64,000 bases of DNA from Octopus vulgaris (taxonomy: Eukaryota): NCBI GenBank assembly GCA_951406725.2, contig OX597822.1, forward strand, positions 52,700,001-52,764,000, given 5' to 3'. Shown here piece by piece: positions 19,187-21,016 of this stretch; position 1 is the stretch's first letter, and each line of letters opens with the position of its first letter. Under the pieces are notes generated by a model. The model was not told the DNA's origin. It saw only the letters and a list, made by a program, of their open reading frames with translations, and did no database searches. The translations under genes and the position numbers were made by a program.

Positions 19187-20198
19187 TGTAGCGAATCTTG
19201 CACGCATGAAGTGGATTCGATCCACCATAGCCAAATTTAAATTAACACTGCTACAGAACTTTTCCCACGATGGAACATTAGTTTTTCTCTGACAGCAGTT
19301 TTACATTTTCCAGATGCCTTTAGCTAGGCCGAAATAATATCTTCACCACTTGACCCTTTCTAACCTCTTCTACTTCACCAAAAGCTAGAATAGAGATAAC
19401 AAGTCCACCAACTAAATCTATTGTTCTGAATGATATGTCTATCCTTCTGGATAGTTATACAAGCAAAAATCAGTTAGTCACCAACCGGTGACGACTCAAC
19501 GCGGTTTGGCTGACCAACCTTGGTCAGAGGGAGAAAGCAACTGTGAGACAACACCCTATAATTCTCTCTAGCTCTAATTCTGTTCTCTTACAACATCATT
19601 TTATCTCTCTCAGTAATTACTACTACTAAACAATGAAGAGGACACAAACACAAACTTTACTTCGCATGCTTCTGGATGTATCAAAACCTGCCCGACGAGG
19701 CAAGGTATTTGTAACGTAACGGTAAAACTTCATGCACAAGGCGGCGAGCTGGCAGAAACGTTAGCACGCCGGGCGAAATGCTTAGCGGTATTTCGTCTGC
19801 GTTACGTTGTGAGTTCAAATTCCGCCGAGATCGACTTTGCCTTTCATCCTTTCGGGGTCGATAAATTAAGTACCAGTTACGCACTGGGGTCGATGTAATC
19901 GACTTAATACCTATGTCTGTCCTTGTTTGTCCCCTCTGTGTTTAGCCCCTTGTGGGTAATAAAGAAATAGGTAAAACTTCATGCACTTTGTTCTTTCCCA
20001 TCCTACAGTATGCAAATATAACCACAAATTATTATCGTTACCACTCCTTCCACCGACAATTTCATATTATTAATTACAAATCAATTTGTACCGTTACAAT
20101 TGGTAACCACACCAAAATAAAAAATTAAAGCCATTACAATTGGTGACTACCGACATTTCATAATATTGTGTACCTAAACAAAATCTTCCGCCGTTACA
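19187..20198 (+). mobile_element. Solo LTR of a Gypsy-type family with a U5 att/PBS array
   Basis: TGTAGCG...CCGTTACA ends; 4-bp TSD AGCT (19183-19186, 20199-20202); colinear homology with the reverse complement of 51737-52388. Confidence 0.8.
19738..19969 (+). mobile_element. SINE family B, full length, inserted in the LTR
   Basis: 17-bp TSD GGTAAAACTTCATGCAC; tRNA-like head with B-box GAGTTCAAATTCC. Confidence 0.95.
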
Positions 20199-21016
20199 AG
20201 CTGATAGGGTAGAAGCAGCTGTCTGCCAATTGAGAGGTGCTGAAATACTTCATAAAACCTGGATAGGTTTTTAAGTGGAGCACAAAGGTGTGTGTGTGTG
20301 TGCGTGTGTGTATGTGTGTGATGAAGAGAATCGAACTGAATGTGAAAACGTATTATCTTGCTTACAAAAAGAAAAAAAAAGTTTACAAAACTACGTCATG
20401 CTAACCTATTTCCTAAAATTTATATTTCCAGCTGGTTTTATTGCAAAGATTTACTTATAGCTTCCCCTCTCTCTCTCTCTCTAATAATAAAGAATATATA
20501 AAATGAAGATGGAGGTGGAGTTTCTTCTCTCTGCGTGTCTAAAACAATATCTATACTGTGTATGTTTACTCATCTAGGTACGTACTATTCAGCTTAAATA
20601 GGTTTATTTGCTTTAGTGAGTAAACTTCTTTTTGAAACAGTAAATGCTTCCTTGTTGAAGCATTTACTGTCAAAAGGGCATTTATATTAGAGTTGTTTAT
20701 CTCATGGAATACTGTTTGTATAATCTCGAGTCTTTGGTTTTGGTTATACCAGAAATGAAATTCTTGAGATTTTGTATTAAACAGTATTGGACGTTAAACT
20801 TAGACTAAAAGGCAAGTTAAACAAGATGATATTGCGCTCGTGTGGCTTTTTAAAAAGTGAGTGGAAGCTGTTGCTAAGTGGTATTTATTGCATTCTTTTT
20901 ATGAAATCGACCCCCTTTCAAAGTGCATATAACAGTGCATGATAAAAAGAAAAAGAGATTTTCATCTAGGCGCAGTGTGGTAAGTAGCTTGCTTACCAAC
21001 CACATGGCTCCGGGTT

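Follow-up and report, generated by a model that had tools for sequence, protein, structure and literature searches.

Repeated end-and-primer junctions inside the 3' end of a very probable solo LTR in Octopus vulgaris

The U5 end of retrotransposon cDNA is set by the position at which the tRNA primes. HIV-1 with two primer-binding sites (PBS) is said, going by the titles of Li et al. 1997 and Voronin and Pathak 2004, to be able to retain both and to initiate reverse transcription at each of them; those are laboratory viruses or vectors with two intact sites, whereas the array considered here is natural, multi-unit and decayed, and includes the LTR-end motif (att) as well as the PBS. In the standard pathway, as set out in the available parts of PMC13191261 and PMC10886601, synthesis of minus-strand DNA begins at the primed PBS and takes in all of the U5 upstream of it, and plus-strand strong-stop DNA, which includes a copy of the primer, is transferred to the PBS. 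The canonical junction thus formed by U5, att, 2 nt and PBS is what each unit of our array reproduces, but four such junctions are found in one copy of the family and six in another, with the inner ones lying within U5. TRIM tandem arrays repeat LTR/PBS junctions together with whole LTRs, and Helenus/Cassandra-type LTRs carry small-RNA sequence (PMC13570524 and PMC10886601, in the parts available). In contrast to the TRIM tandems, where whole LTRs are repeated, here a 40-60 nt junction alone is repeated. With Helenus, as described in those parts, the present family shares tRNA-related sequence inside the LTR and a 4-bp target-site duplication (TSD; found in animal Helenus), but Helenus has a tRNA-like Pol III promoter, while here the tRNA-related part is antisense and lies at the primer position.

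CsRn1-like Ty3/Gypsy elements (CsRn1, PwRn1 and AgCR) have a tRNA-Trp PBS and a 4-bp TSD (PMC2582038, in the part available). The octopus family is like this clade in having a tRNA-Trp PBS that begins TGGTGA (observed in copy 2, described below), a 4-bp TSD (at one site) and a TGT start, and differs from it in its multiple PBS, which do not figure in that part of the clade's description. Compared with the terminal motifs in the available part of PMC3601003 (Table 3), CGTTACA at the 3' end conforms to MSYYAMA of CsRN1, and the 5' end agrees with 6 of the 7 letters of TGTGGYG; it should be noted that the rGmr1 motifs fit about as well, CGTNACA fully and TGTNANR in 6 of 7 letters. The element is probably a tRNA-Trp-primed, Gypsy-type LTR retrotransposon, known here from its LTRs and PBS, with no gag or pol found. 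Within the literature searched, which comprised titles and the starts of abstracts and left most subscription journals and Repbase Reports outside its scope, we found no description of a natural att/PBS array in U5. With its array, the element is probably an unusual variant of an ordinary retrotransposon and not a new system.

The window, by which we mean the whole 64-kb stretch of DNA analyzed, is AT-rich, rich in microsatellites and SINEs and without a long ORF, and is repeat-rich animal DNA. ARAGORN called no tRNA genes in it, and Rfam gave no match at 51200-52600. Two copies of the family are considered, one that is very probably a solo LTR (referred to below as the solo LTR) and one on the minus strand at 52388-51588 (copy 2). 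Their features are collected in Table 1. The motifs that the initial annotation had quoted for the solo LTR (AGCT, TGTAGCG and those at 20035, 20091, 20131 and 20191-20198) are each found where it had put them. Like a canonical solo LTR, this copy has TG...CA ends, a short terminal inverted repeat (6 of 7 letters, TGTAGCG against the reverse complement TGTAACG) and a TSD. Its 3' end holds three inner units, each of which consists of an LTR-end motif, 2 nt, a remnant of a tRNA-Trp primer site and an AT-rich tail. The motifs read TCGTTACC at 20035, which ends in CC rather than CA, CCGTTACA-AT-TGGTAACCAC at 20091 and CCATTACA-AT-TGGTGACTACCGAC at 20131. Tandem Repeats Finder, run over 19100-20300, called no array. 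The att-complementary sequence upstream of the SINE (anti-att, below) may act as a U5 stem partner of att. At 19475-19484 lies a 10-nt stretch complementary to the V3 PBS, which can be attributed to chance at such lengths (estimate about 0.14).

Table 1. Features of the solo LTR and of copy 2 (positions in the window)
Feature	Position	Strand	Remarks
Left TSD, AGCT	19183-19186	+	
LTR, very probably solo, TGTAGCG...CCGTTACA	19187-20198	+	About 763 nt when the SINE and one of its TSD copies are left out
att-complementary sequence (GTAACGG core)	19709-19724	+	Kept in copy 2 at 51816-51807
High-copy SINE inserted in LTR	19738-19969	+	17-bp TSD at 19721-19737 and 19970-19986
Unit V1	20035-20090	+	att-like 6/8; PBS remnant 7/14; AT-rich tail paralogous to V3 tail
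Unit V2	20091-20130	+	att 8/8; PBS remnant 8/14; tail with AATAAA at 20116
Unit V3	20131-20190	+	att 7/8; PBS remnant 12/14; AT-rich tail
Terminal att CCGTTACA, the integrated end	20191-20198	+	
Right TSD, AGCT	20199-20202	+	
Copy 2 LTR body	51745-52388	-	Starts TGTAGTG at 52388; AATAAA at 51807; no purine tract upstream
Copy 2 inner units U1-U5	51588-51744 including last att	-	att-like motifs at 51744, 51697, 51670, 51658 and 51617
Copy 2 outermost (sixth) att	51595-51588	-	
Copy 2 best PBS	51546-51585	-	Complementary to tRNA-Trp(CCA) nt 76 to 38 in 37/40 columns, one extra C

To place the 3' boundary of the solo LTR, four candidate ends (20042, 20098, 20138 and 20198) were tested for a TSD. 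The 4-bp TSD is found at one of the four, the outermost at 20198, and a match of 5 or 6 bp at none. A random pair of 4-mers at the same distance matches with a frequency of 0.0048, and the chance over the ends tried is about 1-2%. The sequence upstream of the LTR lacks a purine tract (9 of 20 letters are purines, with no G run), and downstream of 20198 there is no PBS (3 of 18 letters match). All or part of the stretch is represented in 24 public runs listed, from five organisms, and four of these, three of contigs (X1, X9 and X13) and one of raw reads (X22), were also aligned to 18800-20285 at 80% likeness. When referring to the depths given here, it should be considered that alignment depth does not equal copy number, that filtered records leave holes and that split alignments are possibly under-counted. 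The 25 reads that aligned from X22 are all SINE, and this run thus has no bearing on the LTR. Across the left LTR end, the X1 depth rises 18-fold, from 24,044 in bin 19150-19199 to 423,528 in bin 19200-19249, and record 20 of X9 begins at 19187, the LTR start. Over the array, the depths are 1,121, 814 and 1,618 in X1 (its own allele accounting for about 59), 105, 62 and 65 in X9, and 120, 145 and 3,276 in X13. Family depth is kept to bin 20150-20199 and then falls to 0 in X1, 0 in X9 and 10-34 in X13, with the own allele of X1 also missing after 20199; X1, one contig of which is identical to 19949-20120, may be the source sample. Among the variants listed, those in the LTR body are represented by up to 104 contigs each. 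As judged from the distance-to-end values given with the variants, the alignments of contigs with the left repeat end at 19181-19187 and, by our reading of that column, the left flank is therefore not continued in the LTR. To the right of 20199, no resumption of the left repeat is seen, contrary to what a clean insertion into its middle would give, although holes in the alignment are possible. The joints and loose ends listed concern only the SINE, with no empty site, second TSD or end of another copy among them. With the TSD at the last motif only, no purine tract upstream, no PBS downstream and family depth that ends there, the locus bears out the initial annotation, which read it as a solo LTR whose 3' end includes the array.

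In copy 2, the LTR, which would be a 5' LTR, is followed by five inner units of 47, 27, 12, 41 and 22 nt. The layout of the units is the same as in the solo LTR, although the number of junctions is six rather than four. The first 550 nt of the solo LTR align to 52388 to about 51790 of the minus strand with 409 of 533 ungapped columns identical (76.7%) and a score of 335, as compared with -66 +/- 16 in 100 shuffles, so that the earlier claim that the two LTR bodies align is confirmed; of six LTR-body blocks, one gives no alignment between the copies (z 1.0). In the 64 kb, there are five matches with at most 3 mismatches to an 18-nt att+PBS pattern derived from copy 2, where 0.35 are expected and none of 100 shuffles reaches five. 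Two of these matches lie in the solo LTR and three in copy 2 (one being the source of the pattern). As none falls outside the two arrays, and as the number is far above expectation, the array can be considered real. Patterns for att+PBS and for the LTR gave no match in the collections of viral contigs and genome contigs. Further copies of the family were sought by means of an LTR-body pattern, and the five metagenome loci obtained (L001-L005) each show a 28-nt match only, with no other likeness, and are attributed to chance.

Beyond its best PBS, copy 2 has weak att- and PBS-like motifs at 51545-51440 of the minus strand (GTTACA at 51545 and TACA-TT-TGGTGAACCCG near 51461-51445). These score 41, a value reached by one of 500 dinucleotide shuffles, and as unrelated stretches of the window reach 39, they should be seen as marginal. 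In the same region, one frame after the PBS, its 4 stops read as X, yielded no match to a retroelement in Pfam, in a word search or in phmmer, the three phmmer matches all being repetitive proteins. The other two frames were inspected by eye, and a motif scan near either copy revealed no convincing CHCC gag motif. The stretch was also considered as a decayed CsRn1 gag on the grounds of a likeness by eye, a candidate that found no database support.

As the reference for the primer, we used the tRNA-Trp(CCA) gene that ARAGORN called in record L006, with CCA added. The V3 remnant matches the 3' end of this tRNA in 12 of 14 columns. Together with the match of the copy-2 PBS in 37 of 40 columns, this identifies the inner units as decayed tRNA-Trp primer sites, each placed 2 nt after an LTR-end motif. 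The inner remnants of copy 2 match 9, 11, 4, 13 and 8 of 14 letters, with no clean gradient of decay. From the start of the PBS to GAC there are 14 nt in V3, U1, U2, U4 and the best PBS, as opposed to 13 in the tRNA. This shared extra letter suggests that the units were probably copied from the element's own PBS and not repeatedly taken fresh from a tRNA.

Unusually long matches to tRNA-Trp were observed in more than one place. The copy-2 PBS (51585-51546, minus strand) and record L008 (reverse strand, 1474-1512) both match nt 76 to 38, beside position 37, and both are then followed by GTT, while in record L009 (reverse strand, 943-975) the match reaches nt 44. A PBS so much longer than 18 nt is either a conserved long PBS or a fossil of primer read-through. 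L006, L008 and L009 have no other sequence in common with the window. At 1-60 and 150-223, L006, a contig filed as a bacterial MAG, holds a eukaryote-type tRNA-Trp gene next to what we take to be a U6 snRNA gene. The three records are probably contaminants, L008 and L009 looking like eukaryotic retroelement DNA in MAGs.

Several other repeats of the window should be mentioned. The SINE in the solo LTR, which we liken to octopus SINEs, is of a very abundant tRNA type and recurs in about ten other places (e.g., 24504-24749, 41631-41860, 56610-56830 and 31845-32067), the longer copies being 83-99% alike. The sequence to the left of the LTR, 18800-19186, is a separate repeat family with tens of contigs in three runs. 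It ends at about 19145, where it presumably has a pogo-type terminal inverted repeat, and a smaller set of its copies aligns on to about 19185, adjoining the LTR start. At about 44600-45540 (minus strand), a Gypsy-like gag with zinc-knuckle remnants and a protease (LDTGSDISII), both broken, are spread over several frames, with the upstream side cut by another element; the motifs look Mag-like, and no tie to the solo-LTR family was made. Two further broken remnants on the minus strand, both of non-LTR type, we take by eye to be a CRE-like endonuclease end (about 45540-46300) and a Penelope-like RT/GIY-YIG end (about 49400-50400). Finally, an inverted pair with arms of 371 nt, 85% complementary and in part simple repeats, lies at 62555-63499.

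The tails of the units were compared as three solo tails against three of the five copy-2 tails, U3 and U5 being too short. None of the nine cross-copy pairs is significant after correction (best p 0.043 and 0.057), while within copies one of three pairs matches in the solo LTR (V1-V3, p 0.001) and one of three in copy 2 (U1-U2, p 0.005). The mismatch between copies is weaker evidence than it looks, because one of six blocks of the LTR body also fails to align at this divergence of 23%. As the tails match within copies but not between them, duplication appears to have built or reshuffled the arrays of each lineage independently. The initial annotation had described different 'spacers' in each copy. 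This stands insofar as no tail matches the other copy, but the tails are not independent pieces, those of V1 and V3 being duplicates. No source for the tails was found within the 64-kb window, and as a decayed extension of the tRNA they also fail, with none of five tails significant and a summed p of 0.95.

Other copies carry V1 as well, with differing letters at 20046 (in 4, 9 and 0 contigs) and at 20072 (in 4, 9 and 2) in X1, X9 and X13, respectively, among the variants listed; at both positions, the variant letter is closer to the V3 unit. The median depth over the array is 184, 193 and 356 times below that over the body in these runs, although one body bin of X13 (110.7) is equally low. 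The presence of V1 in other copies and an array depth about 180-360 times below that of the body support an array that is heritable and changes faster than the LTR body; the initial annotation had proposed an integral, independently evolving U5 feature of the family.

With moderate confidence, we explain the array by a junction that was duplicated, a tRNA that primed at the distal copy and inner copies that then decayed. A 40-60 nt junction comprising the U5 end, att, 2 nt and PBS would have been duplicated, most likely by template switching or by a mis-registered plus-strand transfer during reverse transcription, with DNA-level slippage as an alternative route. Template switching or a mis-registered second transfer among similar PBS copies would also be the simplest source of units as uneven as 12-60 nt. 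Once tRNA-Trp primed at the distal PBS, the inner units would, by the standard pathway, become part of U5 and be copied into both LTRs. Integrase would then join the att at the end of the cDNA, giving a 4-bp TSD such as the one observed. Recombination between the LTRs would leave the solo LTR, with the SINE, now present in it, presumably inserted later. The unused inner PBS copies, which are decayed, would have been free to decay and reshuffle differently in each subfamily, by what we suppose to be neutral change. The initial annotation had integrase using the outermost att, as if by choice. This is not upheld, since in the standard pathway the outermost att is simply the neighbor of the PBS at which priming last took place. 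Integrase acts on the DNA end, which is formed by the att beside the primed PBS, and need not choose among att sites.

A different reading is that selection maintains the inner units, be it as alternative priming sites (in which case any unit would yield an integrable end), as RNA-stem partners of the anti-att motif, as signals for polyadenylation or as decoys, whether for tRNA fragments or for repressors that bind the PBS. This we consider unlikely. The inner att letters are kept in 56 of 64 cases and the inner PBS letters in 72 of 112 (Fisher p 0.0008), which is unexpected and speaks against neutral decay; it should be considered, however, that units were picked by their att, a choice that biases the comparison. 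The arrays persist in two copies that are 23% apart, the anti-att motif is kept in both (19709-19724 and 51816-51807) and pairs over 9-10 nt with array motifs, and AATAAA is found in the V2 and U1 tails, so that these elements could give the inner motifs a role. Nonetheless, folding is in neither array better than in shuffles (z 0.79 and -0.99), which gives no support to a stable RNA structure there, most of the inner PBS copies have too few matching letters to be likely to prime, and the number, length and tails of the units differ between copies. If, on the other hand, AGCT were a chance match, the LTR would end at an inner att, the array would be a 5' leader and 19187-20198 would be a 5' LTR plus leader truncated by a deletion. 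Several ends were tried, and a probability of 1-2% is not negligible for a hand-picked locus; the failure to see the left repeat on the right side, and the weak units that copy 2 may have on both sides of its best PBS, would also fit. Such a deletion must, however, break within one letter of an 8/8 att and recreate the 4-mer found on the left, the PBS match after 20198 is only 3/18, and the best PBS of copy 2 comes after the sixth att and not after the first. We thus regard this reading as quite improbable.

The layout of repeat, tail and repeat, with none of nine cross-copy tail pairs matching after correction, may recall a cassette in which integrase or RT inserts short foreign sequences among att/PBS repeats, much as spacers are inserted in CRISPR arrays. 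We give this hardly any credence, as the units, in contrast to a CRISPR-like array, are uneven (12-60 nt), the V1 and V3 tails are paralogous duplicates, V1 is common to other copies and the tails are simply AT-rich, with no source in the window. A last reading has the plus strand extend beyond m1A58 of tRNA-Trp up to nt 38, fail to transfer normally, jump to the U5 att and so add a unit at the LTR end, in a ratchet. Were this true, the array would preserve past priming events in their order, as a fossil record whose variability is maintained by host surveillance through tRNA fragments or PBS-binding factors. The copy-2 PBS does stop exactly at nt 38 of the tRNA, with the att core as its next letters (51545-51540), and nt 38 is a minor stop of HIV-1 plus-strand DNA at the modified position 37, according to the available part of PMC13191261. 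The unrelated element L008, however, stops at the same nucleotide without a following att, and decayed tRNA extension does not account for the tails (p 0.95), which leaves the ratchet only a slim chance of being right.

Under the preferred reading of duplicated junctions, distal priming and decay, no new enzyme or pathway is implied; one would be only if the ratchet or the decoy reading holds. Arrays of this kind can mislead LTR finders and repeat libraries into placing the boundary at the wrong CA and into counting PBS-like targets of tRNA fragments within solo LTRs. LTR ends and primer sites are usually taken as single, fixed signals. A family with several former end-plus-primer modules in its U5 shows one way in which an LTR lengthens and its end moves, and provides a setting for counting natural shifts of the priming site and of the integrated end.
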